Of a DNA stretch of 64,000 bases, positions 8,199 through 59,962 are shown piece by piece; positions within the stretch are counted from its first letter, which is position 1, and each line of letters begins with the position of its first letter. This DNA comes from Vampirovibrio sp. (GTDB taxonomy: Bacteria > Cyanobacteriota > Vampirovibrionia > Vampirovibrionales > JAJTHC01), in NCBI GenBank assembly GCA_024998755.1, contig JACEUU010000002.1:3511-67510 (forward strand), read 5' to 3'. A program made the translations under genes and the position numbers. Under the pieces are notes generated by a model that saw only the letters and a program-made list of their open reading frames with translations, did not search any database and had not been told where the DNA came from.

Positions 8199-8245
8199 AA
8201 AGAGGTAGTTGTTTTTTGATTTTTAAGTATAAGGAGATGGATGTA

Positions 8246-8761
8246 ATGATGATGATGGCAAGCGGTGAAGCCAGTTTTGACGTAGTTTCAGAATTTGATG
8301 CCCAAGAATTAACCAACGCCCTAGACCAAGTAAAACGAGAAATTGGTGCACGGTTTGACCTAAAAGACGCCAACACTGAAATGGATTTAGGCAAAGATAC
8401 GCTAACCATTACCACCGCAGATGAAACCAAACTAAAAAACGTGATACTAATTATTGAAGAACGCCTCATTAAACGTGGACTTTCTCCGTTTTTGCTAGAT
8501 ACGCAAACGACCAGCCCTGAAGCCGCTTTAGGCGGTAGGGTGCGGCAAGAATTTCCGTTAAAAACAGGGATTGATTCTGATTTAGCCCGTAAGGTAGTGG
8601 CGGAAATTAAAGGTTTGAAACTCAAAGTACAATCTGCCATACAGGGCGAACAAGTGCGGGTTTCAGGCAAAAGCAGAGACGATTTGCAAGCCGTTATGGC
8701 ACACCTTCGTCAAAGTGCTGCAAAGTGGGAAGTACCCCTTCAGTTCAATAATTTTAGATAG
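8246..8761 (+). CDS. yajQ: YajQ family nucleotide/c-di-GMP-binding protein
   Basis: SFDVVSEFD, RFDLKD, KVQSAIQGEQVRVSGKSRDDLQ, LQFNNFR; begins within an ATGx4 run downstream of AAGGAG. Confidence 0.93.
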   Translation: MMMMASGEASFDVVSEFDAQELTNALDQVKREIGARFDLKDANTEMDLGKDTLTITTADETKLKNVILIIEERLIKRGLSPFLLDTQTTSPEAALGGRVRQEFPLKTGIDSDLARKVVAEIKGLKLKVQSAIQGEQVRVSGKSRDDLQAVMAHLRQSAAKWEVPLQFNNFR

Positions 8762-8778
8762 ATAGGAATCTGCATCCC

Positions 8779-10107
8779 TTGTCTCAAGCCATTTCCGCCA
8801 CTGAATCTACTGTTGTTATAGAACATTCCAAACCGAATTCGCCCCTCATGGGTCAAACTAAAAGGTACCTGTTTTGGGTCTTTTTAGGTTGCTGGTTAGG
8901 AGGTATTTTTGATGGTATGGATTCTAGCCTAATGCACATTGTTCTACCCGATGCCGTTGGTGAACTGGTCGGAAAATCAGTCGGTACGGCGGTTACTAGC
9001 CAAGTAGCCAGCTGGGTATCAACCGTTTTCTTGTTGGGGTGGATGCTGGGCGGTATAATTTTTGGTAGGCTGGGCGATACGCTTGGGCGTGTAAAAGCAA
9101 TGGTCTTCAGCATTCTGTTATATTCTTTGTTTACAGGGCTTTGCGGTTTTGCCCATAGTTGGCAGGAATTGGCGGCTTATCGGTTTTTAACAGGCGTAGG
9201 AATTGGCGGAGAGTTGGTTAGTATCGCCACTTTTTTAAGCGAAGTTTGGCCTAAGAAAACCAAAGCCATCGCCATTGGATGCCTATTAACTTCATACCAA
9301 GTAGGGGTTTTTTTAGCCGGCGGGCTAAACTTTTTACTGCATGATTGGCGGCAAGTGTTTTTTGTAGGTGCGTTACCCGCCTTGTTAGTGCTTTTCTTAA
9401 GGTTGTTTCTGAAGGAAAGTCCGCTTTGGATTGCTACTCAAGAAGCTCATGCTCATACTGAATTGCTGTTAGATGATGCAGGCGAAATCATTAGACCCCC
9501 TAGTCTGTGGCAGTCTTTTAGAGAAAAAGACCAACTGCGGTCGCTTATTGTAGGGTCTTTAGCTTTTACAGGGTTATTAGTTGGTTATTGGGCTAGCTTG
9601 GCTTGGATACCCATGTGGATTCATTCCTTAGAAAACGTGCCACCCAATGCCAAAAGTTTCGCTACCATGGTGCAAGGGTCTGTTGCCATTTTGGGTTGCC
9701 TATTGGGTGGACCGTTATGTGATGCTGTTGGGCGTAGATGGTCGATTGTTATTGCTGGACTAGGATGCTTTGGGGCTTCTGCATGGTTGTTTTTAGGGCA
9801 TCCTACTGCGTTTGTTCCCTCGGTTTATTGGGCTAGCGGTGCGTTGGGCTTCTTTATTGGCTTGTCGCAATCTAGCTTGTATATTTATTTACCCGAATTA
9901 TTTGAAACAAAAATTAGAGCGACTGCGACAGGTACTTGCCTCAATTTAGGCAGATTCGCTACAGCCATTGCGGTTTTGTTTATGGGTGTTGTTGTTCAAA
10001 GTTTAGGTGGCTATGGTAATGCTGCCTTTGCCTTTGGTTTTTCATACTTGATAGGCACTTTGGTCATGTTTTGGGCAAAAGAAACGAAGGACGCTTCTTT
10101 ACTTTAA
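8779..10107 (+). CDS. MFS transporter
   Basis: Multiple TM segments; GRLGDTLGR motif A, RFLTGVGIGGE, PELFETKIRATA. Confidence 0.9.
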   Translation: MSQAISATESTVVIEHSKPNSPLMGQTKRYLFWVFLGCWLGGIFDGMDSSLMHIVLPDAVGELVGKSVGTAVTSQVASWVSTVFLLGWMLGGIIFGRLGDTLGRVKAMVFSILLYSLFTGLCGFAHSWQELAAYRFLTGVGIGGELVSIATFLSEVWPKKTKAIAIGCLLTSYQVGVFLAGGLNFLLHDWRQVFFVGALPALLVLFLRLFLKESPLWIATQEAHAHTELLLDDAGEIIRPPSLWQSFREKDQLRSLIVGSLAFTGLLVGYWASLAWIPMWIHSLENVPPNAKSFATMVQGSVAILGCLLGGPLCDAVGRRWSIVIAGLGCFGASAWLFLGHPTAFVPSVYWASGALGFFIGLSQSSLYIYLPELFETKIRATATGTCLNLGRFATAIAVLFMGVVVQSLGGYGNAAFAFGFSYLIGTLVMFWAKETKDASLL

Positions 10108-10111
10108 AGCA

Positions 10112-10855
10112 TTACATTTGGGTACGGAAAACTTTTGAACTTTCTTCTTTTAGAAAGAGAATGGCTTCTACATCTTCTTGTTCCACCAATTCTAAGCGAA
10201 CTAAAATTTCCCCAATATTGGTGCGTTCACCCATAGCAACCGTAATGTATTGTTGCGTTAACAGGGCTTGCTCCATATCCTCTTCCGTAATGCGTTGAGA
10301 CTGTACCAAGTATTCTCCCAGCCTTGTTTTATTGCCTAAATACCGCATTGTCGCATCAATGGTTAAAGAAATAGACGGCTCTATGTAACCCGTTGCAATC
10401 GTATCACACAATAAAATGCAGCATTTTTCCAATGTCCAATGCAGTTCTGTACAAATATTGGCTACATTTAATCCATTTTTACAGAATTTTAACAATTGTT
10501 GCACATCCTTAGAAACATTAGCACTCGGGTTCAATATTTCATTCTTCCCACGAGTCGCTAGAATAGGGTCCCAAAGTTGCAAGAAGTGTTGTTTGTCCAA
10601 CGTCTTAATGGTTTTGGCACTCATTTCTTTTTCAAGTGCATCGCGTAAATCTGTATAGATAACTTGTCTAATCCATAAAGGTAAAGAATTAATAGATAGG
10701 AGTAAATGATCTAATTGCGTTTCTCCTGAAGTTTGCGGCGTTAAAATGCCATTAATATTGAAAGAAGATTCAGGTGTTTTTGCTACACTTGGTGATGGAG
10801 ATACTGTAGCTTGAGGATGTAAATTGGGGTTTTGTGAGGGGGGTAACATAGCCAT
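10112..10855 (-). CDS. Protein with C-terminal MshEN/GSPII_N-like repeats
   Basis: RLGEYLVQSQRITEEDMEQALLTQ followed by NIGEILVRLELVEQEDVEAIL. Confidence 0.65.
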   Translation of the reverse strand: MAMLPPSQNPNLHPQATVSPSPSVAKTPESSFNINGILTPQTSGETQLDHLLLSINSLPLWIRQVIYTDLRDALEKEMSAKTIKTLDKQHFLQLWDPILATRGKNEILNPSANVSKDVQQLLKFCKNGLNVANICTELHWTLEKCCILLCDTIATGYIEPSISLTIDATMRYLGNKTRLGEYLVQSQRITEEDMEQALLTQQYITVAMGERTNIGEILVRLELVEQEDVEAILFLKEESSKVFRTQM

Positions 10856-11126
10856 TTAACTTTAAAACTCCTGTTGCTTGTACCGTATAAATACCTATTG
10901 AGCGTGATAGTGGTACTATCGGTACAAGCAATCAAAAAGTTTAATAATGATTTTTCTATGCAATTGTAGGATTAAATAGGTTATCTTGTTCTTTAGGGGT
11001 CGGTTCATGCTATATTTCAGGGGAAGGAGGCTCTTGCTTAATAATTAATACCTTGTTAACCTTGTCTTCCATTTTCATTATCAACAAAAAAGAAAAACAA
11101 TTCATAGAGTAAAATTGCTTAACGAC

Positions 11127-11161
11127 AAAAATCCACCGATACTTATATCGTATCGGTGGAT
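11127..11161 (-). terminator. Intrinsic terminator of the respiratory operon
   Basis: 12-bp stem ATCCACCGATAC/GTATCGGTGGAT followed by a T run on the minus strand. Confidence 0.75.
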
Positions 11162-11197
11162 AAATTGCACTAAATCAGTCGCTTTTAAAACAAGAGC

Positions 11198-12685
11198 TTA
11201 ACTTTTAGTCGTAGTACTTTGCGGTGCTGATTCAGTTGCCATTTGGGCTTCTGCTTTTTCAGCACCAGCTTCCATCCCTTTTTTGGAAAGGGTTACAAGA
11301 TATTTAGATAATGCATCTAATTCATCTTGATGACCAACAACCGGCGGCATATAGCCATTGTAAGGTGTTTTAGCTTTGGTTGTAATTACGGTGTTGCCTT
11401 TTTCATCTTTTGATTCTTCACTGAGGATAACATGGTTATCTTTCATTAAAGTAATTAAATTAGCAATGGCGTTTTCATCACGTTCGCCCAACAACCTTGC
11501 CATTGAACGGTATCCGTTACCAGTAGCCGTGTGGCAGCTCATACATTGATACCGAAACATTAATTTACCATGACCTACAGTATCTTCTTTCGCCAAGGTA
11601 GCACCTTCTGCTCTTGCCCATGCGTTGGATTTGAAAAAGCCATCGGCATTAACTTGAGCAATTTGATTTTTGCGTAATCCGTTAGAATACATATAGTTGT
11701 AAATAACGTAAGGTTTACGCATCATTTCACGGCTCCATTCTTCCGTGAACATAAAACCAAACCCTGAAGCTAATAACATTAAGGCAAAGGTTGTATTAAA
11801 CCCTTTTGGGTTTAAGAATGGCCCAACAATAACCATACCAATTAGGCCGGTTGCAAATACGATACAGAGGAAGATGACTTTCGCCATCATGGAGAAGTTA
11901 CCTTCGCCCAGTGATGATAAGCCAGATACAATAACTTGTTGAGTAGCTGGTGGTAATGTAAACATATACCATACGACAAATAGAGGACCCGCAATTAGAC
12001 CCGGCAACATCCACTTGGCTGAATAGCGAAGCAAATACTGTTTCAAATCATCTTGACCTTTAATAGTAGAAGCTGTTAGCAAGGCATAAATACCTGCCAA
12101 AGCAAACATTATAAAGAGTCGAATTGCTAAGGCAGGCCAGAAGGCAGGGTTAAAGAATGAATCGTAAACCGTGCCAACAATATTACCTTGTGCATTTAAC
12201 CAACCACCGTTGGTCAACATACCGGTTAAAATGCCGTTAATTACAAACAATGTTCCAAACGAAATACCAAAATAAATCCATGCTAATACGCAGTGGTTTT
12301 TCTTGTCCATTTTACCCATTGTGTAATAATAGGCCAAGAAAGTGGCTAGTTCTGCGGCGAAAAATGTCCATTCCGCACCCCAGAACAATCCAAAGTTTTG
12401 GATTAAAACAGATGCTCCGGAAGGGTTTGCTAAGCCAATAGCCCACCAAATACCCACACCAGAAACTGCACCTAGTACGGTGGTTAGTAGCAAGAAGAAC
12501 TTACTATGTTTCTTGATATAGTCATAAATACGGTCGTCGTTTTTTTTGTAGGCTAAGGTTTCAGTCAAAGCTAAAAATGCACCGCCACCAATAGCAAAGT
12601 GAGAAATAAACACGTGAAAAATAGCGATTAAGCCAATAATCCACCCGTTACCGATGTTAGGAACTTCCCATACTGGATAACTCAT
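11198..12685 (-). CDS. CydA-like (cytochrome bd superfamily) subunit with fused C-terminal cytochrome c
   Basis: IFHVFISHFAIGGG, GAVSGVGIW, WGAEWTFF, EWSREMMRKPY, CMSCH heme motif and distal YMPP; ATG overlaps the cytochrome b stop (TAATG). Confidence 0.85.
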   Translation of the reverse strand: MSYPVWEVPNIGNGWIIGLIAIFHVFISHFAIGGGAFLALTETLAYKKNDDRIYDYIKKHSKFFLLLTTVLGAVSGVGIWWAIGLANPSGASVLIQNFGLFWGAEWTFFAAELATFLAYYYTMGKMDKKNHCVLAWIYFGISFGTLFVINGILTGMLTNGGWLNAQGNIVGTVYDSFFNPAFWPALAIRLFIMFALAGIYALLTASTIKGQDDLKQYLLRYSAKWMLPGLIAGPLFVVWYMFTLPPATQQVIVSGLSSLGEGNFSMMAKVIFLCIVFATGLIGMVIVGPFLNPKGFNTTFALMLLASGFGFMFTEEWSREMMRKPYVIYNYMYSNGLRKNQIAQVNADGFFKSNAWARAEGATLAKEDTVGHGKLMFRYQCMSCHTATGNGYRSMARLLGERDENAIANLITLMKDNHVILSEESKDEKGNTVITTKAKTPYNGYMPPVVGHQDELDALSKYLVTLSKKGMEAGAEKAEAQMATESAPQSTTTKS

Positions 12686-13776
12686 TATACTTGTAACCCC
12701 ATATATGTTAATACGCCTAAAGCGATAAGGAATACAACACCCCAAATAGTAGCTAATTTAGATATGGTGGGGTTTTTACCCGTATCTAAAAACGGAATAA
12801 GTACCATAGTTGAAGCCGCAGCACCAATAATTGCCATTGCCACATGGGCTCCTTCAAAGAAGAGAAACTGAGAGGGCATTAGCTTAAGCACTTGAAACTG
12901 AGATAAGAAATACCATTCAGGCTTAATTCCAATAGGAGCAGGAGCTGAAGGGTCAATTGTTGGACCAAGAGGCCAAGGATTGAGGCAAACAATTGCTAAA
13001 AATAGTAAGGTAACACCACCCCAAACAAACATATCGTTCATAATAAAGTCTGGGAAGAATTTTTCGTACTTCTTAATGCTTAGCTTTTTAAAATATTCGG
13101 GTTCAGAAATACCGTGAATCTGAATAAGCAACAAGTGCAAACCTAATGCACCCATTAAGGCTGCAGGTAAAGCACAAACGTGAATCAAGAAAAACCGATT
13201 CATCGTCGCTTGTCCTACTTCTTCACCACCACGCACGAAGTTGGCAACAAGTTCACCAATAAAAGGTGCTTCACCCGCTACATCAACCCCAACTTTGGTG
13301 GCGAAAAACGCCATTTCATCCATTGGTAATAGGTAGCCAGTAAAACCGAAGACCATCGCTAAACCAATCAAGCCTAAACCTGAAAACCAAGTCAATTCCC
13401 TAGGAGACCGATAAGCTTTCATAAAGTAGGTTGAAAACATGTGAATAACCAAAATGGCGATAAACAGGTTTGCACCCCAGCTATGCATTGAGCGTATTAA
13501 CCAGCCAAACGGAATTTTGTTGTTAATAGCCATAACGGATTGGTACGCACCTTCATAGGAAGGTACATAGTGCACCATTAATAACAAGCCAGTTACTAAC
13601 TGAAGTACTACAAACAGCATACAAATGCCGCCCATGTAATACCAAATAGAATGCTTATGAACAGGAACCTCTTTTTTGGTTGCGAACTTAATAGCGGCTT
13701 CTAGAGGCACTCGCTGGTTAAGCCAATCATAGCCAAACTTGAGGAGATTCATTTTTTTAAAAGTTTCAAATGCCAC
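12685..13776 (-). CDS. Cytochrome b subunit of a bc complex
   Basis: GWLIRSMHSWGA, FGFTGYLLP, RFFLIH, KPEWYF; start probably GTG at 13776 (GGAG upstream) or ATG at 13752. Confidence 0.92.
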   Translation of the reverse strand: MAFETFKKMNLLKFGYDWLNQRVPLEAAIKFATKKEVPVHKHSIWYYMGGICMLFVVLQLVTGLLLMVHYVPSYEGAYQSVMAINNKIPFGWLIRSMHSWGANLFIAILVIHMFSTYFMKAYRSPRELTWFSGLGLIGLAMVFGFTGYLLPMDEMAFFATKVGVDVAGEAPFIGELVANFVRGGEEVGQATMNRFFLIHVCALPAALMGALGLHLLLIQIHGISEPEYFKKLSIKKYEKFFPDFIMNDMFVWGGVTLLFLAIVCLNPWPLGPTIDPSAPAPIGIKPEWYFLSQFQVLKLMPSQFLFFEGAHVAMAIIGAAASTMVLIPFLDTGKNPTISKLATIWGVVFLIALGVLTYMGLQV

Positions 13777-13827
13777 AGGGGGAATTCTCCATATTAACAA
13801 TTAATAATAACTAGATAGCCACTGAAA

Positions 13828-14358
13828 TTAGGCCTTAGCCCCTGCTTTTTCAGGACGAATAACAATTTCACCTGCTTCAACGGAAGCTAATAATTTATGC
13901 AAGCCTTCAGGCGGAGGACCAGCTACTACATTACCAGTTGCAGGGTCATACGTTCCACCGTGGCAAGCACAATAAATGTTATTTTTTGCTTGTTGATATT
14001 GAACAGTACAGCCCAAATGGGAACAGGTTGCGTTGAATGCGTGCATGCTACCATCTGGCGAATGAATAAATAGGGCAGGAATACTACCAAATTTAAAGTT
14101 TTTTGACGTACCGGCTGGAAATTCAGCCACTTTACCTAGTACTAATTTGTCAATTTTAATAGCGGTTGATTTGGGTGGCCATAAATAGCTAAGTAACGGC
14201 CCAGCTGCTACTGCAGCCATTACTGCACCAAATACACCAATCATGCCACCCATAAATAACCGACGAGACATTGTTTCACCAGCTGTTTCTGCTGAATAAT
14301 CAAACGTTGGTGGGGTTTCAATTTTTTCTTCTTGACCTGTTGCCATCATCATCATCAT
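13828..14358 (-). CDS. Rieske [2Fe-2S] subunit
   Basis: Tat-like SRRLF plus TM helix, CSHLGC and CACHGG boxes, GPPP; begins within an ATGx5 run. Confidence 0.93.
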   Translation of the reverse strand: MMMMMATGQEEKIETPPTFDYSAETAGETMSRRLFMGGMIGVFGAVMAAVAAGPLLSYLWPPKSTAIKIDKLVLGKVAEFPAGTSKNFKFGSIPALFIHSPDGSMHAFNATCSHLGCTVQYQQAKNNIYCACHGGTYDPATGNVVAGPPPEGLHKLLASVEAGEIVIRPEKAGAKA

Positions 14359-14379
14359 TTTAGACAACGCTCCAATCTT

Positions 14380-15519
14380 TTATTTGTTTTGATACGCTTT
14401 ATGAACAATTTTAGCTAACCAGCCCAGATACAAAATCAACGCAACAAACAAGACTAAGAAAATAATCAAGATTTCTGTTTGAGGTTGTACTGCGTGGGTA
14501 TTAGGGTCTAATATGTTACTAATAGAAAAAACACGCACTAAATGACGCATTTCCGACATGGCACCTATTAACAATAGAGCTGAAACCAACCCTGTAATAA
14601 AGGCTTTAGAACTACCTTTGACGTAAGCAATAGCCATTGCTATTAACGCAATAACATCTAAGCCTAACGAGGTTCTAAACAAGTGAGACGCCATTTTGTT
14701 TAAGCCCATAAAGCCAGCACCGTTCACATCGAAAAACTGTTGCTGAACAGGACCAGGCAAGGTAAACAAGAACCAAGGACCGACAATGGTTTGTAACAAG
14801 GTAATGCCTAAAAACAAGCCAGCACCTGTTTTAATGAGCCAAGTTGCGTACCCATCATCCTTCTTTTTAAAGTACAAGCCAAAGCTACCAATAGCCAAAC
14901 CCGTTACGGCAACAGCAGCTAATACAAAGTGAACAAACCTTGGAATTAACGTCGGTTCACTTAAGTTTAAGTGCATACCACTTGGGCTTGCTTGGTACAT
15001 TGGCAAGAATTTTTCAGGGGTAAGCATCAGCGTCATATTATTGCTAAAGAAAAACGCAATGACCATAAACAACACGGAAGAACCCAGTAAAAACCAAGGT
15101 GATTTTTCACCTAACTTGTTTTGACCATAGTTAAAGATGTAAAGACCATAATAACCAATGACTAATAGGAATAGTACACTTAACCAGGGAACTGCCATTA
15201 AAATTGACGAGGTATAGGTTAATGGCCCGTATAGAATTTGTAAAAACAACAAGGGGACAATCCCGTTTGTGATTGCCGCAGTGGTAAATAGTGGCAACGA
15301 AGCAGCAATTTGTTTGCCTGCCCGCTGTTGATAACTTTCCGGCTTGTTTTTACCTTGAAATAGTAAAATAGCCGATGTAATACCACCCATTAAAGCAACG
15401 TTCATGGGAATGGCGTGAATAAAAAAGCCTACTACTAAAAGCGTTTCCATAAGCCAAACTGGCGCAGGAAAAGGCATGGGTTGGTAAGCACCGATTGGAT
15501 ATAATGTGATTGGATCCAT
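14380..15519 (-). CDS. Polytopic membrane protein, probable divergent CydA-like partner subunit
   Basis: Many TM segments with FFIHAIPMN, GIVPLLFLQILY, RFVHFVLAAVAVTG, EMRHLVR; first gene of the Rieske/cytb/CydA-c operon. Confidence 0.65.
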   Translation of the reverse strand: MDPITLYPIGAYQPMPFPAPVWLMETLLVVGFFIHAIPMNVALMGGITSAILLFQGKNKPESYQQRAGKQIAASLPLFTTAAITNGIVPLLFLQILYGPLTYTSSILMAVPWLSVLFLLVIGYYGLYIFNYGQNKLGEKSPWFLLGSSVLFMVIAFFFSNNMTLMLTPEKFLPMYQASPSGMHLNLSEPTLIPRFVHFVLAAVAVTGLAIGSFGLYFKKKDDGYATWLIKTGAGLFLGITLLQTIVGPWFLFTLPGPVQQQFFDVNGAGFMGLNKMASHLFRTSLGLDVIALIAMAIAYVKGSSKAFITGLVSALLLIGAMSEMRHLVRVFSISNILDPNTHAVQPQTEILIIFLVLFVALILYLGWLAKIVHKAYQNK

Positions 15520-15897
15520 AAGAATAGAGCGGTCCCATCTACTAAAAAAAGATTGATACGAAATCAGTGAAAGTCTGCAAAGCAACCCTTGGGTTGAATC
15601 TAGACCGTTCAGCCGAAAGAAACTGAAGGCTTCCATCAAACAACTGAATAACGTCTAACAACAAATAAAACAACATTTTAATAACTTTTTAGTTATTTGC
15701 TAACATTATACTGATAGCATACTAAAGAAGCAATGGCATGGCTGAAATAACCAGCGATACCTGTTGAATTAAAATTGAGTTAGTGTGTTAATCACTAATT
15801 ACTTAGTAGTTTAAACCGTTCAACCTAAATGCACCTTGAGCGGACGCATGGAGGTTTTGTCTTTATAAAATCTTTATAAGTTAGGTGTTTTCTTACG

Positions 15898-16227
15898 TTA
15901 TGCTTGAAGCTTGAACGTACTTTCAATACTTTTACTAATAATCTTCCGTAAGCCATCTACTTCTGTAGTAATAGCTTGGTGCTGAAGCTGAATGCGGTTG
16001 GCAATCAATTCTAACCGTTTATCTTGGTTTTGAACACGCTCCATAAATTGCTCTTGTAAAACCACTGCAGGGTTTTCTGGTTCTAACGATTGTGCACTGG
16101 CATAAAGTTTGTCCAGTACATTTGTTAGCCGTAACCGTGCTTGGTTAATTTGCTGCAACTGGAATTCTAAGTCCATTTTGCGAGCAAGCAACATATAGAG
16201 CCGTGCGCTACTAGCAGCGAACCCCAT
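15898..16227 (-). CDS. Small coiled-coil protein beginning MGFAASSARL
   Basis: 109 aa helical ORF; N-terminal MGFAASSARL and C-terminal IISKSIESTFK. Confidence 0.7.
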   Translation of the reverse strand: MGFAASSARLYMLLARKMDLEFQLQQINQARLRLTNVLDKLYASAQSLEPENPAVVLQEQFMERVQNQDKRLELIANRIQLQHQAITTEVDGLRKIISKSIESTFKLQA

Positions 16228-16595
16228 AGCTGTAATCCCCAATCTTAATTGTTAAGGTGAGTGTAAACAAAACATTTATAAAATTAAACTGTAAAAAGAG
16301 AGTTTGTAACCTAATTGATTTGTTTGAAAAGGCTTTTCTTTGCGAAGAAGGTTGTTTCAAAACATCGAATTGACCGTGGCAGCAAATTCCGAAAAGAAGA
16401 GACAATAATCCATTGCATCTATAATTAAAAGCATTCCCGATATCCAAGTATATAAAAACAAGATGCATGAGGTTTTGTGCTAGCAATTCATAAACTTGGT
16501 AATAGGGCTTGGTTAAATCGATTTTATCCTAACTATTGACCCTTTGGTTTGTTTGAAAGAAGATAATGCTATAAGTTTATCTGTACTATTGTTAG

Positions 16596-18080
<1,485 letters not shown>

Positions 18081-18181
18081 CTTTGTAATTCAACAGCGGT
18101 CTCTCTTTTGAATAGTTGAAGACTGACCGTTGTTGGCTTTAATCTTATTTAAATAAAATTCCAGAAGGTAATGCTAGTGCT

Positions 18182-18445
18182 ATGGATATTGCATCAAAAT
18201 ACTTAAAATTGTTGGTGTTATCACCTGAAAAAACGATATTAGACAATGAACCTGTGCTATCAATTGTTGCTTGTGGTGAAGAAGGTTCTTTTGGGGTTTT
18301 GCCTAAGCACCAACCTTTATTAGCCCCCTTGAAAGCTGGCGTATTGGAATACCGTGATTTGTCTGGTGAAAAACGGACGGTAATCTTGCCTTCTAAAGCT
18401 ATTTTATCTACTGACGGAGATGAAGTGGTTATTCTTTGCCAATAA
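18182..18445 (+). CDS. atpC: ATP synthase epsilon subunit, N-terminal domain only
   Basis: LVLSPEK, GEEGSFGVLPKHQPLLAPLKAG; follows atpD; 87 aa. Confidence 0.85.
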   Translation: MDIASKYLKLLVLSPEKTILDNEPVLSIVACGEEGSFGVLPKHQPLLAPLKAGVLEYRDLSGEKRTVILPSKAILSTDGDEVVILCQ

Positions 18446-18475
18446 TAGCCTTAAATTTTATAAAGGTATCCGTGA

Positions 18476-19399
18476 ATGACTTTTTCTGTAAAAAAACCGA
18501 CGACTCTTTTGTTTTCCTTGTTTCTTTCAATTGCCACGATAGCTATTATGGGTTCAACGGCTTTTGCTGATGACTATGATGCTGATACGGTGGATGTGAT
18601 TGATATTGAAAATTTGCCTTGGGGAACGCCTAATCAGCAAGAAGCAGCGACAGAAAAATCTACGGAAAAAAAATCTTTCAGCCCGACAGATTTTCTCAAT
18701 GAATCTGAATTTCAGGCTCACAAACGCACGTTGACGGAATTGAACCAAGTGTTGAAATCCATTTACGATCGTAATCCTAGTTACTTATCGCAATTGGCTA
18801 TGTTTAAAGTCAGTACGGCTACTCGGCTTTATAATGCGTTTATTTATAATCGAGGTGCATTTTTCATTGGCAAAGGCTTTTGGAATGCTTTACAAACCCC
18901 TGACGCCAGAGCATTTGTAATTTTAAACGCCATTACGTGGAAGAAAAATAAAGGCCCTGATAAAGCTCAAAAAGTTAGTTTGCATAGTAAAATTGGTGCT
19001 TTCCCTGGTGGGCTTGTGTTGCTGTTTGCAACCAGTTTGCTTTCCTTGCCTTATAGTGGCTGGGCTACTTACCAAGCTTATAAGGGGTATCCTAATTTTA
19101 TTTTCAGAACGGATATAATGACCTTAGACCAACTTGAAAAATTAGGATATGATCCTAATAAAGCCATTGAAGCTTTAACGGTATTGGATGATACCGATGC
19201 GTTTTCTTTTTTGGATCAACCCACCAAAACTTATTATGAAGCTCAAACGGGGCGTTCGGTTTACAACCCAAGCAATTATCGGTTAGCCAAACAAGGATTT
19301 ACTATGGGCGTCCCTAAGCCTGAAAAACGGTATGAAAAACTAGCACTTTATTTGGCTAAGCAAGCTAAACCTTCTGTTAATGTTACCAAAAAACCTTAA
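18476..19399 (+). CDS. Exported M48 peptidase-like protein lacking zinc ligands
   Basis: Signal peptide ending AFA-D; YNAF...FFIGKG...AFVILNAITW; KLGYDP; PKPEKRYEKL. Confidence 0.55.
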   Translation: MTFSVKKPTTLLFSLFLSIATIAIMGSTAFADDYDADTVDVIDIENLPWGTPNQQEAATEKSTEKKSFSPTDFLNESEFQAHKRTLTELNQVLKSIYDRNPSYLSQLAMFKVSTATRLYNAFIYNRGAFFIGKGFWNALQTPDARAFVILNAITWKKNKGPDKAQKVSLHSKIGAFPGGLVLLFATSLLSLPYSGWATYQAYKGYPNFIFRTDIMTLDQLEKLGYDPNKAIEALTVLDDTDAFSFLDQPTKTYYEAQTGRSVYNPSNYRLAKQGFTMGVPKPEKRYEKLALYLAKQAKPSVNVTKKP

Positions 19400-19416
19400 C
19401 CCCATTAGCTTTATTT

Positions 19417-20526
19417 CTACCAATTTTGCTTAATGGTATCGATGACTTTTATTTGTTGTTCTTCTGTCAAGGTACCCGAAGAGGGTAAATTAATATGTTC
19501 ACGCCATAGTTTTTCTGCTACAGGAACTGAGTTGGATTGATTGGTAGTGGCATAGGCTTGGGTTAAAGGCAGTGGTTTAAAAATAGGGCGTGCTTCAATA
19601 CCAGCTTCGCCTAATTGGGCTAGCAACGCTAACCGTTTTTCAGGGTGTGGCAACCGTAAAGTGGAAAGCCAATAGCTAGGCACTTGTATCATGCCATTTT
19701 GGGGTGGTGGGCACCCTCTAAACCAGCTCTCAAAAGCCTGTTCATAAGTAGTAGCAATCGCAATACGTTTAGCTAGTAATTCAGGGAAGCGTGCCAATTG
19801 CACCAATCCTAAGCTAGCAGGTATAGCAGACATTCGGGTATTGTAGCCCACATCAAAATGGTCAAGTTCGCCATTGGTGAAAATTTTGGCTTGTGTAGCA
19901 AGGCGTTTAATGGTTGCCATTTCGTCGGCATTTTGACCTACTAACATCCCACCAGACCCAGTTGTAAGTGTTTTGTTGCCATTAAAACTAAATGCACCAA
20001 AACGTCCGAAGCTACCCACTGGCTTCCCATTTACTTTAGTACCTAATGCTTCCGCAGCGTCTTCAATCAGGATGAGGTTGTGAGCATCTGCCAAAGCCCG
20101 AAGCCCAACCACATCGCACGCAAACCCATAAAGATGGGTTGCAATGATAGCCTTGGTTTTCGGGGTTATGAGTGGTTCTACGGTTTCTGGGCAGAGCCCG
20201 AAGGTTTCTTCGTGAACATCTGCAAAAACGGGCGTTGCCCCAACATATCGAACGGGATTAACCGTAGCTACAAAGCTTAATGCTGGTACAATGACTTCAT
20301 CGCCTGTTTGAATGCCACTGGCAGCCAACGCCATCCAAATGGCACTGGTACCACAATTTGTACTGACGGATGCATTAAAGCCTAACTGCTTTACAAAAGC
20401 CGTTTCAAATTCATCCACCATGGGGGCTGCAGTGGAAAGCCAGCCAGATGCAATGGTTTCAGCAACAGCCGATTGTTCAGCGTGGGTCAACCAAGGTTCT
20501 GATAAAGGAATTCGTTCAACAGGCAT
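19417..20526 (-). CDS. DegT/DnrJ/EryC1/StrS PLP-dependent sugar aminotransferase
   Basis: GDEVIVPALSFVAT, IEDAAEALG, SFNGNKTLTTGSGG, GYNTRM. Confidence 0.92.
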   Translation of the reverse strand: MPVERIPLSEPWLTHAEQSAVAETIASGWLSTAAPMVDEFETAFVKQLGFNASVSTNCGTSAIWMALAASGIQTGDEVIVPALSFVATVNPVRYVGATPVFADVHEETFGLCPETVEPLITPKTKAIIATHLYGFACDVVGLRALADAHNLILIEDAAEALGTKVNGKPVGSFGRFGAFSFNGNKTLTTGSGGMLVGQNADEMATIKRLATQAKIFTNGELDHFDVGYNTRMSAIPASLGLVQLARFPELLAKRIAIATTYEQAFESWFRGCPPPQNGMIQVPSYWLSTLRLPHPEKRLALLAQLGEAGIEARPIFKPLPLTQAYATTNQSNSVPVAEKLWREHINLPSSGTLTEEQQIKVIDTIKQNW

Positions 20527-22570: not shown

Positions 22571-22775
22571 TAGGGTCTGTTTTCAAATAGAGTAGTTGTT
22601 TTTTTGTTAAAATAGGGCTGTAACCTTTGTATACAGAGCCTATAGCCCATGCGATTTGACCTAACAGATACCCAATTTGAACAAATTCACGCTCTATTTC
22701 CTAATGGAATCGAAACGAGAGGCAGAAAACCGATCGATATTCGGCAAGTCATTAACGGTATTTTCTACATTCTTA
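22571..22775 (+). pseudogene. IS5-family left end and transposase N-terminal fragment
   Basis: MRFDLTDTQFEQIHALFP..RGRKPIDIRQVINGIFYIL (DUF4096-like) from 22649, interrupted by IS630 element C. Confidence 0.75.
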
Positions 22776-23528
22776 TACCAATTCTCAGTTTAAATGACGT
22801 GTTGAATATAGGGAAAATAGGCAAACGATTTCACCCACGTCGTATTTGCCTCTACCCAACGCAAAGCCTTAACTAAATGAGCTTCCACTGCCCAACGCTC
22901 TCCTTGTGGCAACAAAACTCGGCGTAATTGACAAATTTTGCCAAACCTCGCTTCATCTTGAAAAAAGACCCGAACGGTCTTTTTTACTATTTTCGTAACA
23001 AAATTAATGCGTTCAGGGAGTTTTTTTGAAGAGGGTTTGATCCTCCTCATTATGATTGGGGTGAATTGATCGGGGTACCTTCGGCTTCCAGCCGTGGCGA
23101 TTAAGCAGACGGTAGCCGCTTTGAAACCCTACGTTTCGCCCCACTTGTGCATTAAGTGCTTGGTGTAAATCGTAGATGCCAACCTTGCCTTTGTGTTGGT
23201 CAAGTAACGCCATTTCGACTTGTTTGTTGGGTAATAGGCTGTTACGACGAATGCCTTTTTTGGGGTTGAGGATGTGAAGTCCGTGTTGTTGGACTTGGGC
23301 TTGGATGGGTTGTACTTGTCTAAGGCTGTAGCCAGTGTGTTGGGCTATTTCAGCTTGTTTTTTTGGGTCGACGATTTTAAGCTGAATACAGAGGAATCGA
23401 CGGTAGGTTTTTCTTGTCGGTGAAGGTTTTTCAAAGGCGAGTACGTCTTCTTGGGTAAGCATAATAAAGGTCTTTGAAACAGACAATAACACGCCCTTAT
23501 TATACGACACTTAAAGTGAGAATTGGTA
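22776..23528 (-). mobile_element. IS630-family element C, internally deleted relative of element B
   Basis: Ends TACCAATTCTCA.../...TGAGAATTGGTA; ORFs 23013-23510 and 22790-23050 homologous to element B but missing ~330 bp of the DDE domain. Confidence 0.88.
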
Positions 23529-23873
23529 TTACCCACAGGCTTGGCGGTTTCTAAAGCAACGGTCAATGTTTATGTTTTAGATTCAAATATTAAAACCATT
23601 ACAACTGGCGGTGTAACAAGGAAGTCTTTAAATATTAATGTTTATTCAGCTACTCCTACAGGTACTATTTTTATTAGAACAATTGCTTTAAATGTAAGCG
23701 ATGAAGTTTTTACTAATGCAACAGATAGGTTAACCAATGCAGGGGTTAGTGGTAGTATTATGCTGTTGACTTTGGACGAAAACAAGACTCAGTTTTACGT
23801 TAATGTTGAAGCAGCAGGAACGGCGGGTAACCCTGGTATAATTTATCAATTTGGCTCAGACCAAGCCATTTAA
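23529..23873 (+). pseudogene. Probable 3' remnant of a beta-rich protein gene truncated by IS630-C
   Basis: Open frame begins at the IS boundary with no native start; terminator hairpin downstream. Confidence 0.45.
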
Positions 23874-30741: not shown

Positions 30742-30794
30742 TTACAGGATTGTATTAATCAATTCCCGTAATTTTTAAGCCTATGATGATGCTA

Positions 30795-46186: not shown

Positions 46187-46678
46187 ATGATGGACGTTAA
46201 TATTGAACAACTTAAAGCCTTGGCTGAACTAGCAAAAGCCAATGAATTGGCTGAAATTACGGTTACAGATGGTGATAAAAGTATTACCATTAAAACACCG
46301 TCTTCAGTTTCTCATACCGTAAACCAGTTTTCTGGTGGTGGTGTTTCTACTTTCGCTCCTGCAATGGCTGGTGCAACCACTGCTGTAGCCACGGAATCTT
46401 CCAGTCCCTCTCCTTCTGTTGTTGCGGTAGATGCGGCAAACATTAAAACGATTAGTGCCCCAATGGTTGGTACGTTTTATGCGTCTTCTTCCCCAGAATC
46501 ACCCGTTTTTGTTGAAAAAGGGACGGTAGTAAAAGTGGGTCAAACACTTTGTATTTTGGAAGCCATGAAGCAGATGAATCAGCTGGAAAGTGAATTGGCT
46601 GGCACGATTGTTGAAGTGTTAGGTCAAAATGGTCAGCCTGTTGAATTTGGTCAGCCTTTATTTAAAATTCAAGTGTAA
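46187..46678 (+). CDS. accB: Acetyl-CoA carboxylase biotin carboxyl carrier protein
   Basis: APMVGTFY, EAMK, VEFGQPLF. Confidence 0.96.
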   Translation: MMDVNIEQLKALAELAKANELAEITVTDGDKSITIKTPSSVSHTVNQFSGGGVSTFAPAMAGATTAVATESSSPSPSVVAVDAANIKTISAPMVGTFYASSSPESPVFVEKGTVVKVGQTLCILEAMKQMNQLESELAGTIVEVLGQNGQPVEFGQPLFKIQV

Positions 46679-50676: not shown

Positions 50677-50985
50677 TTAAGCCTTATCAATAACCCATGC
50701 GGAAAATAGAAAAATCAACTGCAAAATCAAGGCTGTTGCAGCTAACCGAACAAATGCTCCCTTGGGGCTTTCTGGGTTATTAGGCGGTGCTAGCAAATAA
50801 GGGATACCCACGCAAGGCATGGCAAAAACGGCACTAAGCCAAGGGAAAACCGGTTTTTCTGTTTTTTTACAATACCGATAGCAACTGAGCAGAAAAAATA
50901 CGTTTGGCACTAAGATAATAGCCACTGTAAACAAGGGGTGTCGCATGGGCAACAACGCTGGTAAATCTAAAAATAACATCATCAT
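50677..50985 (-). CDS. Small hypothetical membrane protein
   Basis: About 100 aa with three hydrophobic segments; ATGx3 directly after AGAGGAA. Confidence 0.6.
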   Translation of the reverse strand: MMMLFLDLPALLPMRHPLFTVAIILVPNVFFLLSCYRYCKKTEKPVFPWLSAVFAMPCVGIPYLLAPPNNPESPKGAFVRLAATALILQLIFLFSAWVIDKA

Positions 50986-55375: not shown

Positions 55376-55377
55376 CA

Positions 55378-56460
55378 TACCAATTCCAAGTTTAAATAGC
55401 GTGTTGAATATAGGGGAAATAGGCGAACGATTTCACCCACGCTGTATTAGCCTCTACCCAGCGTAAAGCCTTCACTAAATGAGCTTCCACTGCATCCAAC
55501 GTCTCAAAATAAGCATTGCCAAAAAACCGAGTCCGAATACCCTTCCACAACTGCTCCACAGGGTTCAACTGCGGACTATACGGCGGTAAACAAACCAACC
55601 GAATGTTAGCAGGAACAACCAGCCCCCCACTTCTATGCCAACCTGCACCATCCAAAACAAGCACAATCTCATCTGCAGGGTAACGCTCACTTAATTCACG
55701 TAAGAATACGTTCATCCAATCCGTATCCGCATACGGAAGAATCAACGAAACACTCTCTCCCGTCTTGGGTTCCATGGTACTATACGCATAGAGGTATTGC
55801 CGTATATGTTGAGCTTCCACTACTGAACGTTCACCCTTGGGTAACCATACTTTACGAACTTGGCAAATTTTGCCAAACCTCGCCTCATCCTGAAAAAATA
55901 GCCGAACTGGCTTTTTTACTGTTTTTGTAACAGAGTTAACGAAGTCAGGAAGTTTTTTTGAAGAGGGTTTGAGCCTCATCATTATGGTTGGGATGCACTG
56001 GGCGAGGTACTTTTGCCTTCCAATCGTGGCGATTGAGCAGGTTGTAAACAGTTTGAAAGATGACGGGTCTGCCCACCAGTGCGTTGAGTGCCTGGTGTAA
56101 ATCGTAGATACCGACCTTACCTTTGTGGCGTTGTAGTAGGTCTATTTCGGCTTGTTTACTGGGTAGTAGGCTATTGCGTACAATCCCTTTTTTAGGATAG
56201 AGACTGTAAAGTCCGTGTTGTTGAACTTGGGCTTGAATGCGTTGGACGTGTCGAAAGCCGAAACCCGTATGTTGGGCTATTTCGGCTTGTGTTTTACCGT
56301 CGATTATTTTGAGTTTAATGCAGAGGAATCGGCGATAGGTTTTCTTGTCGGTGAAGGTTTTTTCAAAGGCGAGTACGTCTTCTTGGGTGATCATGATCAG
56401 AATCTTTCAAACAAACAATAATACCCCTCTATTATACGCTATTTAAACTTGGAATTGGTA
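55378..56460 (-). mobile_element. IS630-family element B, complete
   Basis: 25-bp ends TACCAATTCCAAGTTTAAATAGCGT; ORFs 55945-56394 and 55392-55982 (FQDEARFG, LDGAGWH, PPYSPQLNPVE) overlap at A7C. Confidence 0.93.
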
Positions 56461-56462
56461 TT

Positions 56463-56906
56463 ATAGCTTCAAACGCTTCAAACCATAGGCAGTTGGAGAT
56501 AGGCTGGTGCGAGCGTAGCGAAGCAGAGCATTTAGGGAGCCTCTTTTGCTTCCGCTCAAGCCTATTTTCAACGTACACGAAAGCCAATTAACCAGTTGTT
56601 CCCCTGGGGATTACAAAGGGGGTGGCGAGCAGCCCCTTTGTTTTGCGGGGGGTGTGGGGGGTGCTCAAACAGTACCCCCCATGAAGCCCTAGCCCGAAGC
56701 GATTAACCCGTCCGCATTTTGAAAAATAAAAAAGGTCAGGTGTTATAGCAATTCAAAGTTAGAATAGCGTATAGCTTTCTCTATGTAGGGGTGCGATTTA
56801 TCGCATCCGTTTAGGGCTTGTGGGACGGACTGATGCAACGCATAGACCGCTAGGGCTAATAAATCACGCCCCTACAAAAACACGCCATTTAATCTTTGAA
56901 TTGGTA
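56463..56906. repeat. Repeat R copy 3 (56463-56745) plus MITE M copy 3 (56746-56906)
   Basis: Near-identical to 54418-54852. Confidence 0.88.
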
Positions 56907-56950
56907 TGATTTGTTGGCTTCCACGTTAGAAAGAGGCTTGAGCGGAAGGC

Positions 56951-57883
56951 TATAGCTGTTCCAAAAGTTATTGAGCCATTTTAAAGGCTTGGTCAATGGC
57001 TTCATCTAAAGATAAGGTATCGGTTAGTAACCGACGAATTCTCGCCTTCAACGCCGACCAAAATCGCTCAATCGGATTCAAATCAGGACTGTAAGGCGGT
57101 AAAAACAACAACCGACAACCCGCAGATTCAATCAGCTGTTGAATCTCCCAAGATTTATGAAAACTCGCATTATCCCCAATGACCGTCATCCCCGCCGTTA
57201 AACTCGGTAACAACTCATGTTCAACCCACGTCAAAATAACCTCGGTATTACAATAGCCCTTAAAACACCACGGGGCTAATGGCTTTCCACCCTGTAACCC
57301 TGCTATAATAGAGGTACGTTCGGTGCGTTGACCACTAATTTCCTCCTGCACCCGTTCACCTTTAGGGGAACGACCATACAAGCGTTCAACGCTTCTACGG
57401 TCAACCCCACATTCATCCACAAACACAAGACTGGCGGGCGTTAGCGGTTCTATCTCCTGCTTATAAACTGTGCGTTTGGCTTCACTTCGTTCTCGGTAGA
57501 GCGTGCTTTTTTTTACGGCTAATGCCGAGTTTAATGAGGTTGTAGGAGATGGTGGATTTTTTAGAACCGAGCAAGAGAGCCAATTCGTCCAAATAGGCAC
57601 TGGGGTTGGCTTTTTGTATGGCGAGTAGTTGGTTTCTGTCGATGCTTGTTGCGGTGGTTGCCCCTGGTTTTTTGGGGATGAGACAGGTTCGTTTGACCCA
57701 TCGTTTGACGGTGGCGAGACTGACTTTGAATCGGATGACGGTGGCTTGTTGTGTTTCTTTTTCTTGATTGATGCAATCAACGACTCGTTGTCTTAAATCG
57801 ACGCTATATGCCATAGATGAATCCTCCTTTTTCGTGAACGTTATCCTCCTTATTATAGCTCAATAATTATTGGAACAGCTATA
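56951..57883 (-). mobile_element. IS630-family element A, copy 3
   Basis: Same translated ORFs as copy 1; abuts element B at an internal TA. Confidence 0.95.
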
Positions 57884-58735
57884 GCAGGAACAACCAGCCC
57901 CCCACTTCTATGCCAACCTGCACCATCCAAAACAAGCACAATCTCATCTGCAGGGTAACGCTCACTTAATTCACGTAAGAATACGTTCATCCAATCCGTA
58001 TCCGCATACGGAAGAATCAACGAAACACTCTCTCCCGTCTTGGGTTCCATGGTACTATACGCATAGAGGTATTGCCGTATATGTTGAGCTTCCACTACTG
58101 AACGTTCACCCTTGGGTAACCATACTTTACGAACTTGGCAAATTTTGCCAAACCTCGCCTCATCCTGAAAAAATAGCCGAACTGGCTTTTTTACTGTTTT
58201 TGTAACAGAGTTAACGAAGTCAGGAAGTTTTTTTGAAGAGGGTTTGAGCCTCATCATTATGGTTGGGATGCACTGGGCGAGGTACTTTTGCCTTCCAATC
58301 GTGGCGATTGAGCAGGTTGTAAACAGTTTGAAAGATGACGGGTCTGCCCACCAGTGCGTTGAGTGCCTGGTGTAAATCGTAGATACCGACCTTACCTTTG
58401 TGGCGTTGTAGTAGGTCTATTTCGGCTTGTTTACTGGGTAGTAGGCTATTGCGTACAATCCCTTTTTTAGGATAGAGACTGTAAAGTCCGTGTTGTTGAA
58501 CTTGGGCTTGAATGCGTTGGACGTGTCGAAAGCCGAAACCCGTATGTTGGGCTATTTCGGCTTGTGTTTTACCGTCGATTATTTTGAGTTTAATGCAGAG
58601 GAATCGGCGATAGGTTTTCTTGTCGGTGAAGGTTTTTTCAAAGGCGAGTACGTCTTCTTGGGTAATCATGATCAGAATCTTTCAAACAAACAATAATACC
58701 CCTCTATTATACGCTATTTAAACTTGGAATTGGTA
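57884..58735 (-). mobile_element. IS630-family element B, truncated copy
   Basis: Matches ~55609-56460; 3' part of the DDE ORF is absent. Confidence 0.92.
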
Positions 58736-58756
58736 TTAAAGTAATTATATCGTATT

Positions 58757-59962
58757 TTACAAACTGGCTTGGGCATGAAACCGTCCATGATGATGCTTCG
58801 AATGATGCGTAGAAGCCGTAGCATGGCTTCCTCCTTCAACTAAAGTGCCTTGCGAACGATTAACCGACGTTTTAGCCCCTATTGTTGGGTTGGCTACAAT
58901 TGTTGCTGTAACTGGTTTAAGAGGCGAAACAATGGGTTTTTTAGTTATGGTGGAGGCTCCTAAAACCGTTGCTAACGTTGCAACTTCACTCAGCCGTACT
59001 TGTTCCACATAAGAAGGTTGTTGGGTAGCCACGGCTTTCGTTGTGTTTGGTTTTTCTGTTGTGGGAGGCGTCGTTGTCGCTTCCGTAATACCCAAGAAAG
59101 TGGTATTAACCAGCAACGGACGCATAATGCCATAAGAAAGTAAATTAGAAATCATTACAAAGGCTAAAGAAAGCCCCGTTTTGTTATGGCCTTCATTAAG
59201 TGTGTTCCACGACCACTGCAACCCATCCGCGGTTTTATGTAAGCTTTTACCCACGGCTTGGTTTAGCCCTTTCCACCCTTCCGTTTTGGCTAGCCATTGT
59301 TCTGCCTGGTTGCGTACAACGTGGTTCTTTTTGCCCGCCAATGCAATGCCATCTACCAACGCAAAACTAGCTACAGCCTGCACACAATGAATAGCAGCTC
59401 CAACAACTTGCCGAGCAATTTCTTGGTTATTAAGCAGTTTTTCTTCTTTGGGAGTGATTTTTTTAGCTTTTTTTAGCTCTTTGTTAATCCAAATCGTCGT
59501 CATAATGGTAACGATAGTAGACGGTACATATTGCATAACAACGAAGGCTTGTAGCCATTTGTTTACTTCGGTTTTACCCCCCGTAATAGCATCTTTTATC
59601 TGCTGTTTTAAACTATCCACATAGGTATTGTTTTGAGTTAAGGGTCCGCCCACTTTTTGTTGTACGGTTTGCCAGATAGCATCTGCCGTTTGATGACTTT
59701 CTTGTTTTACACTGTTAAGTAAACTAATTAATTGGTCATCTGTCAAAGTGTGGTTAGGATGATTAACCAATAGCCATTCTTTAACTAGGTTAAGAATTTT
59801 CTTCGGGTTTTCTTCGGATTGTTCCAAGGCTTTTTTTAAGGGCGAATCTTCCGTTTTAGATGATTTTCCTGAACGCATACTAGCACCAGTAATAGAGGGT
59901 AAGCCCTGTTGATAGACCGATTTTCGGCTATTACTGTAGGGTGTTATCAATTGCATCATCAT
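58757..59962 (-). CDS. Hypothetical membrane-associated protein with His-rich tail
   Basis: About 400 aa from an ATGx3 run; several hydrophobic segments; HHSKHHHGRFH near the C-terminus. Confidence 0.72.
   Translation of the reverse strand: MMMQLITPYSNSRKSVYQQGLPSITGASMRSGKSSKTEDSPLKKALEQSEENPKKILNLVKEWLLVNHPNHTLTDDQLISLLNSVKQESHQTADAIWQTVQQKVGGPLTQNNTYVDSLKQQIKDAITGGKTEVNKWLQAFVVMQYVPSTIVTIMTTIWINKELKKAKKITPKEEKLLNNQEIARQVVGAAIHCVQAVASFALVDGIALAGKKNHVVRNQAEQWLAKTEGWKGLNQAVGKSLHKTADGLQWSWNTLNEGHNKTGLSLAFVMISNLLSYGIMRPLLVNTTFLGITEATTTPPTTEKPNTTKAVATQQPSYVEQVRLSEVATLATVLGASTITKKPIVSPLKPVTATIVANPTIGAKTSVNRSQGTLVEGGSHATASTHHSKHHHGRFHAQASL

Follow-up and report, generated by a model that had tools for sequence, protein, structure and literature searches.

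Why should unrelated genes of one bacterium open with several start codons in a row? The question is raised by a stretch of 64,000 nt (hereafter the window) from a freshwater Vampirovibrionales bacterium related to the predator Vampirovibrio; in this stretch, genes as different as yajQ, atpD, and gyrA begin with tandem, in-frame ATG codons. The window corresponds to C2:3511–67510 of a three-contig, 2.49-Mb, metagenome-type assembly with 43% G+C, referred to below as G000, and n denotes the number of consecutive ATG codons at the first ATG of a gene. About one gene in eight of G000 opens with three to nine ATG codons, a pattern specific to this codon, its frame, and the beginnings of genes. As the explanation, we tentatively favor tandem start codons that are maintained by selection, tunable by slippage, and active at initiation.

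Tandem ATG tracts are specific to gene starts

Genes were predicted with our own crude caller, which took the 5′-most ATG as the start and returned 2051 open reading frames (ORFs; 84.5% coding), and 2018 genes were counted once the 33 ORFs without an ATG had been left out. Genome-wide, 344 runs of at least three ATGs were detected, including 245 at a called start, 21 in frame and no more than 40 codons from a start, 14 outside called genes, 15 at internal Met, and 49 in another frame or on the other strand. Most of the 14 runs outside called genes resemble the starts of small genes, and the 21 near-start runs include that of YajQ, where an upstream ATG abuts the Shine–Dalgarno sequence (SD). 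At the first ATG, n was 1 for 1568 genes, 2 for 205, 3 for 125, 4 for 87, 5 for 28, 6 for three, and 7 and 9 for one gene each, while internal Met runs (Met positions >30 codons inside genes) of length 1, 2, 3, and 4 numbered 10,706, 310, 13, and 3, respectively. Runs with n ≥ 3 were found at 245 of 2018 starts compared to 16 of 11,032 internal Met positions, i.e., an 84-fold excess. This is the genome-wide count that an earlier sequence-only reading of the window (the initial annotation) had proposed, and the poly-Met pattern which it had noticed at unrelated genes proved far stronger at this scale. ATG/CAT was also the sole expanded triplet, with 134 runs of at least four units versus seven or fewer for any unit outside its rotations. 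For genes with n ≥ 4, 99 of 120 (82%) have no in-frame ATG, GTG, or TTG upstream, leaving the leading ATG of the run as the earliest start available to the ORF.

In the window itself, ATGATGATG has 16 overlapping matches at 12 loci, when 0.38 would be expected and the maximum in 100 shuffles was 3. These loci, along with three doubled starts, are as follows:

8246–8257, plus strand: (ATG)4 at the start of a YajQ/DUF520 gene (ORF end 8761; Pfam), with GGAG at 8233–8236, 9 nt upstream
14344–14358, minus strand: (ATG)5 at the start of a Rieske/PetC-like gene (13828–14358; Pfam), with GGAG at 14370–14373, 11 nt upstream
16641–16652, plus strand: (ATG)4 at the start of atpD (end 18080; Pfam), with GGAG at 16630–16633, 7 nt upstream
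36707–36715, plus strand: (ATG)3 at the start of gyrA (end 39256; Pfam)
42459–42467, plus strand: (ATG)3 at the start of a radical-SAM gene of CofH_C type, MqnE/MqnC-like (end 43697; Pfam)
50977–50985, minus strand: (ATG)3 at the start of a 102-aa ORF (50677–50985) with no Pfam family, GAGG lying 2 nt upstream of the first ATG
59954–59962, minus strand: (ATG)3 at the start of a 401-aa ORF (58757–59962) with no Pfam family, GGAGG lying 11 nt upstream
31290–31295, minus strand: (ATG)2 at the start of smpB (Pfam), an instance of the family-wide excess of Met-Met (MM) starts
46187–46192, plus strand: (ATG)2 at the start of accB, biotin carboxyl carrier (Pfam)
34355–34360, minus strand: (ATG)2 at the start of a 363-aa ORF with no Pfam family
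92–100, 36097–36105, and 58787–58795: (ATG)3 away from gene starts, His codons on the coding strand
41300–41308: (ATG)3 away from gene starts, Asp codons on the coding strand
30783–30791: (ATG)3 outside called genes

All seven runs with n ≥ 3 in the initial annotation are thus present, each opening a long ORF, and its three doubled starts were located as well. Its gene names for YajQ, Rieske, AtpD, GyrA, and the MqnE-type protein (the last as MqnE/C-like) agree with Pfam, as do those for SmpB and AccB. The shared flank and GGAG-type SD that it had described for the three longest runs were also recovered, with GC directly after the run and GGAG 7–11 nt before it. An in-frame ATG at 8237 adjoins the SD of YajQ and is unlikely to be the working start. 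The five remaining (ATG)3 loci are not gene starts, and two genes that cross the ends of the window also open with MMMM, one of them being Obg (Pfam).

Runs are spread over many functions. The share of genes with n ≥ 3 climbs from 8.4% to 17.1% across quintiles of codon adaptation, and gene-family annotation, which took in 57 of ~120 genes with n ≥ 4 and 32 flagellar genes, revealed a bias towards motility. Among the 20 longest-run genes examined (of 33 with n ≥ 5), eight are flagellar (FliL and FlhA, ×6; FlhB, FlgD, FlgF/G-like, FliE, FliS, and FliM, ×5), and the others include a phosphoribosyltransferase (×9), RbfA (×7), pyruvate kinase, fumarase, and YebC. Further genes with n ≥ 4 encode GyrB, DnaB, MutL, Ffh, EngA, S9, PurN, FliW, FliG, and rod proteins. 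For the 17 flagellar genes picked by family search alone, seven have n ≥ 3 (background 12.1%, p = 0.0025) and four have n ≥ 4 (background 5.9%, p = 0.016). In total, n ≥ 4 was seen for 14 of 32 flagellar genes, although nine of the 32 had been found through their long runs, and these 14 represent a minority of the 57 annotated genes with n ≥ 4. Separately, G000 encodes two FliP-family genes (C2:239876–240529 and C2:633310–633975) and six flagellin-family genes (C1:50050–53517 and other places), which suggests either an additional export apparatus or an expanded set of flagellins.

Distribution across lineages and variation in length

We next compared G000 with its sister species G001 (both genus g1) and with more distant relatives, namely G008 (genus g8), G010 and G005 (genus g5), G004 (genus g4), G019 (another family), and G044 (another order). 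The number of (ATG)4 was 177 in G000, 206 in G001, 89 in G008, and 62 and 37 for the g5 pair. Of the other Vampirovibrionia searched (~195), nearly all have 0–20, with 33–46 in three genomes that are larger or rich in repeats. For (ATG)5, G000 has 43, and 398 of 400 other Cyanobacteriota sampled have at most 14, the two exceptions having a few long arrays or a repeat-rich background. The initial annotation had proposed a lineage-specific device, and indeed, with ~600 Cyanobacteriota genomes scanned, counts were high only in three genera (g1, g5, and g8) of one family. In G008, G010, and G005, the runs lie at gene starts behind an SD, and Ser, Ala, or Thr comes next in 17 of 24 runs seen. Using the same caller throughout, starts with n ≥ 3 amounted to 12.5% in G000, 8.2% in G001, 6.9% in G010, 0.6% in G004, and 0% in both G019 and G044.

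Doubled starts are more widespread than long runs. MM starts make up 10–14% in four family genomes versus 3.4% and 1.1% outside the family, i.e., they are 3–10 times commoner across the family, including in genus g4, which is without long runs. Internal Met runs in G000 are not raised relative to these relatives. In a tree of gyrA, a single gene, g5 stands apart from a clade composed of g1, g8, and the low-run g4. Orthologues in G004 and G010 (≥35% identity, ≥60% coverage, and an alignment start within 40 residues) indicate that the genes affected differ: for G000 genes with n ≥ 3, the G004 orthologue has n = 1 in 28 of 34 pairs, and G010 has n ≥ 2 in 11 of 19 orthologues of such genes versus 20 of 59 orthologues of G000 genes with n = 1. 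Doubled starts are thus in excess throughout the family, and long arrays emerged or persisted in some genera, mostly on different genes.

Run length varies readily between close relatives. Between G000 and G001, 53 of 72 orthologous runs differ in length. In the window, the Rieske run (×5) is ×2 in G001; atpD opens with MM in G001 and genus g5, M or MM in genus g4, and M in other genera; and gyrA is ×3 in G001, ×2 or ×1 in g4, ×2 in g8, and ×1 in other genera. The nearest AtpD loci belong to metagenome-assembled Vampirovibrionales at 78–82% identity, and DNA of the window was found again in freshwater and lake metagenomes. Over positions 8000–19999, Logan contigs (assembled, not raw reads) of four sequencing runs from four studies (X1–X4) could be compared to the window. 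One 9.5-kb contig of X2 holds the YajQ, Rieske, and AtpD tracts unchanged, the YajQ tract has the same length in contigs of X1, X2, and X4, and so does the AtpD tract in contigs of X2 and X4, while among the X3 contigs listed, none lies over the three tracts in this interval. One 2547-nt contig of X1 displays ×8 instead of ×5 at the Rieske gene, with nine extra bases at 14343 and 11 other letters differing. Tract length therefore varies within or between close populations for one of the three tracts checked in contigs, and length changes are 3-nt steps both within populations and between sister species.

Several further observations concern the surrounding DNA. The X1 population carries a 9-nt insertion at position 10911, and indels of 1–2 nt in X2 cluster at 10951–11162, in non-coding DNA that separates the ORFs with ends at 10855 and 11198. 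For all four sequencing runs, summed contig depth increases several-fold across the conserved atpD core (17200–17999), most likely because contigs of other organisms are recruited at 90% likeness, and not because of a copy-number change. A ~150-bp stretch at ~25314–25464 matches more than 25 places on many G001 contigs at 83–96% identity, sometimes on both strands, and resembles a miniature mobile repeat. A second dispersed repeat (~22771–23529), probably an insertion-sequence fragment, matches several G001 contigs and many G005 contig ends. Finally, a two-ORF insertion sequence is present twice, at 55392–56394 and 57853–58669 (minus strand), and its DDE_3 transposase begins with MMRLKPSSKKLP in both copies.

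Selection, slippage, and competing explanations

Next, we evaluated whether ATG tracts behave like other triplet repeats. In the 471 kb outside called genes, non-ATG triplet runs numbered 5387 for n = 2, 129 for n = 3, 9 for n = 4, and 0 for n ≥ 5, which translates to step ratios of 0.02 and 0.07 versus 0.61, 0.70, and 0.38 for start ATGs. Within the first 25 codons of genes, runs of other codons of increasing length numbered 1504, 80, 6, and 3, compared to 205, 125, 87, and 33 for the start ATG, and the density of non-ATG triplet repeats in G000 is the same as in relatives without the trait. We then used 372 orthologous pairs (622 kb of G001, ≥50% identity) to follow individual arrays. For 59 G000 genes with n ≥ 3, the G001 orthologue has n ≥ 3 in 44 cases, n = 2 in eight, and n = 1 in seven, and 239 of 268 genes with n = 1 in G000 remain so in G001. 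Length is identical in just 19 of the 59, with differences from −3 to +4. The two genomes differ at 45% of four-fold degenerate sites (0.69 substitutions per site), and at this level of silent divergence, the chance that two extra ATGs survive unchanged is 0.028. The presence of an array is thus conserved whereas its length is labile, and since similar behavior is absent elsewhere in the genome, this points to selection on ATG at starts.

The aligned spacing from the SD to the first ATG has its mode at 9–10 nt for every run length, so that the SD is fixed relative to the first ATG and longer runs reach further into the ORF. Proteins would begin with 3–9 Met if it is the SD that determines the start. 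The residue directly after the run is strongly biased. Ser and Thr together account for 25% at n = 1 (34% in a cleaner, SD-bearing subset), 35% at n = 2, 51% at n = 3, and 69% at n ≥ 4, and at n ≥ 4 they drop to 35% one position further on and ~24% beyond, while Lys, Pro, and hydrophobic residues are depleted after the run. Ser is enriched through both its TCN and AGY codon families, which places the junction signal at the amino-acid level. Hydrophobic N-terminal segments are found in 9–10% of run genes versus 20%, and the Ser/Thr bias is weakest in MM genes. Overall, the preference for Ser, Thr, or Ala after the run points to some link with N-terminal maturation.

The scenario that we regard as best, tentatively and with somewhat less than even confidence, is that these are selection-maintained, slippage-tunable tandem start codons acting at initiation. 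Selection would keep extra AUGs beside the start and strand slippage would supply the length variants, while the array would most likely act at translation initiation or during the first rounds of elongation, with several adjacent in-frame AUGs offered to the initiator tRNA. Run length could then set or tune protein output without the frame ever being broken, and use of the first AUG would give a product with a short poly-Met N-terminus. The outcome would be a graded, heritable expression knob and not an on/off switch. A more specific version is possible, although we give it somewhat less credence: start-codon copy number may serve as a heritable and rapidly mutable output dial, or as a gate responding to Met-tRNA or physiological state, on hundreds of genes and on flagellar genes most, with the Ser/Thr junction marking a coupled N-terminal maturation. 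In that case, (AUG)n would encode a layer of translational control that spans the genome.

Several results weigh against an action at initiation. A pure initiation model would not predict that Ser and Thr are so sharply preferred behind the run. Nor do runs offset a weak or misplaced SD, as the proportion of genes with an SD stays level or increases with run length at unchanged spacing. AUGs 2 to n sit 12–22 nt from the SD, beyond the usual window. The opening energy of the ribosome-binding site was 5.91 kcal/mol with the run and 5.70 kcal/mol after in silico collapse, hence the run does not open this site, and GTG and TTG are depleted rather than enriched after the start. Ribosomal-protein genes mostly have n = 1 (L6 is ×3 and EF-Tu ×2), part of the apparent conservation could come from slippage itself homogenizing the repeats, the gene calls are crude, and no gene-content correlate of the trait was found among 19 family genomes.

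Other modes of action at the start were considered and set aside. The initial annotation had listed alternative SD spacings, tandem TGA stops clearing the +1 frame, and a binding site for a small RNA or protein among its options. The first finds no support in a spacing that is constant over run lengths, nor does the second, with only 1–2.5% of run genes overlapping an upstream gene and no effect of operon position. The third is similarly unsupported, with runs frame-locked to the ORF and just 14 lying outside called genes. The sequence also raised the idea that the run pairs weakly, through UGAU, with the 16S tail, but the presence or absence of an SD makes no difference to how genes behave, and the idea was abandoned. 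Two further options of the initial annotation, a sensor of Met-tRNA supply and an N-terminal processing tag, are kept among the candidates below.

Among gene-content candidates, an altered anti-SD was ruled out by a canonical 16S 3′ end, and an unusual initiator or extra tRNA-Met genes by the presence of three CAT tRNAs with a canonical initiator, the other two most likely representing one elongator tRNA-Met and one tRNA-Ile2. Loss of mismatch repair or of formylation and processing was likewise rejected, as mutS, fmt, methionine aminopeptidase (MetAP), and peptide deformylase are present in 19 of 19 family genomes, and so was Met auxotrophy, with metH in 18 of 19 and metE in 0 of 19 whatever the trait. 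MetAP is single-copy in all 19, whereas peptide deformylase has two copies in most family genomes and three in g1 and G007, a copy number that does not track the trait. In G000, two tandem peptide deformylase genes lie beside fmt (C1:574071–576393), and the third copy is found elsewhere.

The alternative that survives best, and which we still consider rather unlikely, is a function at the protein level, in which an N-terminal Met cluster is selected on the mature protein and ATG repeats are its only possible coding. Candidates include a sacrificial antioxidant patch, a block to Met excision, or a tag for stability or recognition. Met tails are what a first ATG at the SD-set position would lead one to expect, and the amino-acid-level constraint on the junction (69% Ser and Thr, then 35%), with its depletion of Lys, Pro, and hydrophobic residues, the halved frequency of hydrophobic N-terminal segments, and the third deformylase copy in g1 would all fit. 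However, internal Met runs are not raised compared to relatives, and the clients are very diverse (AtpD, GyrA/B, DnaB, FlhA, and Ffh). Moreover, one extra Met would be enough to block excision, yet runs reach 4–9, and it is MM genes that show the weakest Ser/Thr bias, while neither the single-copy MetAP nor deformylase copy number follows the trait.

A gate on Met-tRNA or physiological state appears improbable. Here, the block of AUGs after the start would tie early elongation to charged elongator tRNA-Met, and low Met would stall ribosomes on the ribosome-binding site, shutting down a regulon that includes motility genes. Consistent with this, the SD-positioned AUG precedes the runs, which lie within the ORF, flagellar genes are overrepresented, the likely elongator tRNA-Met and tRNA-Ile2 have single genes beside the initiator, and Met synthesis proceeds through B12-dependent MetH alone, MetE being found in 0 of 19 family genomes. 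MetH/MetE content is however alike whether or not a genus has long runs, most run genes serve housekeeping functions in many pathways, and the Ser/Thr junction would be left unexplained. The sole mini-ORF composed of MMMM and a stop is also not beside a Met gene.

Equally unlikely, in our view, is a nearly neutral by-product, in which start ATG doublets expand by slippage and are tolerated since N-terminal tails are unconstrained, the lineage effect stemming from drift or from a subtle change in replication or repair. Length changes are indeed 3-nt indels, the length distribution drops steeply above 5 in a microsatellite-like manner, run genes have polar, flexible-looking N-termini, and g1 and g5 carry runs on different genes (the 11 of 19 versus 20 of 59 seen for G010). 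In addition, the MutS of g1 (G000, C1:349986–352598, and G001) has an in-frame insertion of ~57 aa between model positions 589 and 592. Neutral microsatellites would nonetheless be expected to include other units wherever constraint is low, and no comparable expansion was seen in non-coding DNA or in other codons of the same N-terminal tails, with a total triplet-repeat load equal to that of relatives without runs. The 44 of 59 runs kept despite 45% silent divergence, the family-wide MM excess that extends to g4, the junction-residue constraint, and the functional bias are likewise unexpected under neutrality.

Lastly, an artefact of assembly, binning, or annotation, conceivable for a three-contig metagenome-type assembly with crude gene calls, has a negligible chance of being the explanation, as Logan contigs from independent studies carry the same runs (one with ×8 instead of ×5), four further species genomes have the trait at orthologous starts, SD spacing is constant, and 82% of runs with n ≥ 4 are the first possible ORF start.

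Comparison with known systems and significance

One close parallel is with simple sequence repeat (SSR) contingency loci, the phase-variable genes of Haemophilus, Neisseria, and Campylobacter, which include flagellar genes. Both have repeats at the 5′ end, length changes by slippage, polymorphism within populations (here ×8 versus ×5 at the Rieske gene, with 53 of 72 runs also differing between the sister species G000 and G001), and a bias towards motility. Unlike at SSR contingency loci, however, the unit is 3 nt and in frame, it is the start codon itself, and the spacing from the SD to the first ATG is untouched, so nothing is switched off by frameshift or altered spacing. Also, instead of being confined to a few surface, motility, or host-interaction genes, runs are found at hundreds of loci (245 of 2018 genes), mostly housekeeping, including AtpD, GyrA/B, DnaB, Ffh, MutL, and S9.

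Codon-run leader peptides, as in the his, trp, thr, and leu attenuators, offer a second comparison, since an early block of identical codons could similarly report the supply of one charged tRNA. Attenuators rely on a leader ORF of cognate codons ahead of a biosynthetic or transport operon, whereas the runs described here open the main ORFs of unrelated genes, with no terminator or antiterminator implied. G000 does contain one mini-ORF of four ATGs (MMMM; C1:1281452–1281469), closed by TAG TGA, in a 70-nt gap flanked by unrelated genes. The gene downstream of it starts with MM and presumably encodes an AMP-binding enzyme, judging by the look of its sequence.

Alternative in-frame starts that give rise to isoforms are known for infB and clpB of E. 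coli. More than one in-frame start is also reported in connection with leaky scanning at yeast PIF1 (10.1101/2024.01.21.576553) and with tandem AUGs of PTPRJ (PMC2490741). In each of these four cases, as here, more than one in-frame AUG is open to the initiating ribosome, but they are single genes whose starts are parted by functional sequence, whereas the AUGs of G000 are adjacent, variable in number, and genome-wide. Extra Met also serves as a cellular antioxidant, through surface Met residues and through mitochondrial AUA read as Met. The tracts would similarly reflect lineage-wide selection for added Met; however, enrichment in the antioxidant case is protein-wide, while here internal Met is not raised and the added Met is only N-terminal. 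The initial annotation knew of no described system matching the tracts, and our full-text search of the literature, whose coverage leaves out subscription journals, also found no description of tandem ATG starts in bacteria. One further paper (PMC13157829) concerns a ribosomal-protein prophage, a subject unrelated to tandem ATG starts.

Bacterial initiation is classically modeled with a single, SD-positioned start codon for each gene. In this lineage as a whole, ~12% of genes retain several start codons side by side, with a number that shifts fast and a presence that is kept across deep divergence. Whichever mechanism is involved, gene callers and N-terminal predictions need care for these genomes, and run length provides an easily scored population marker for freshwater Vampirovibrionales. 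If Met tails are what matters, they would constitute a new kind of proteome-wide N-terminal tag. If run length instead affects output, these bacteria would have a new and simple way of tuning expression without the risk of frameshift, which would matter for how start sites are selected, for early elongation and N-terminal processing, and for the evolution of repeats as tuning knobs, and could be adopted directly as a part for synthetic biology.

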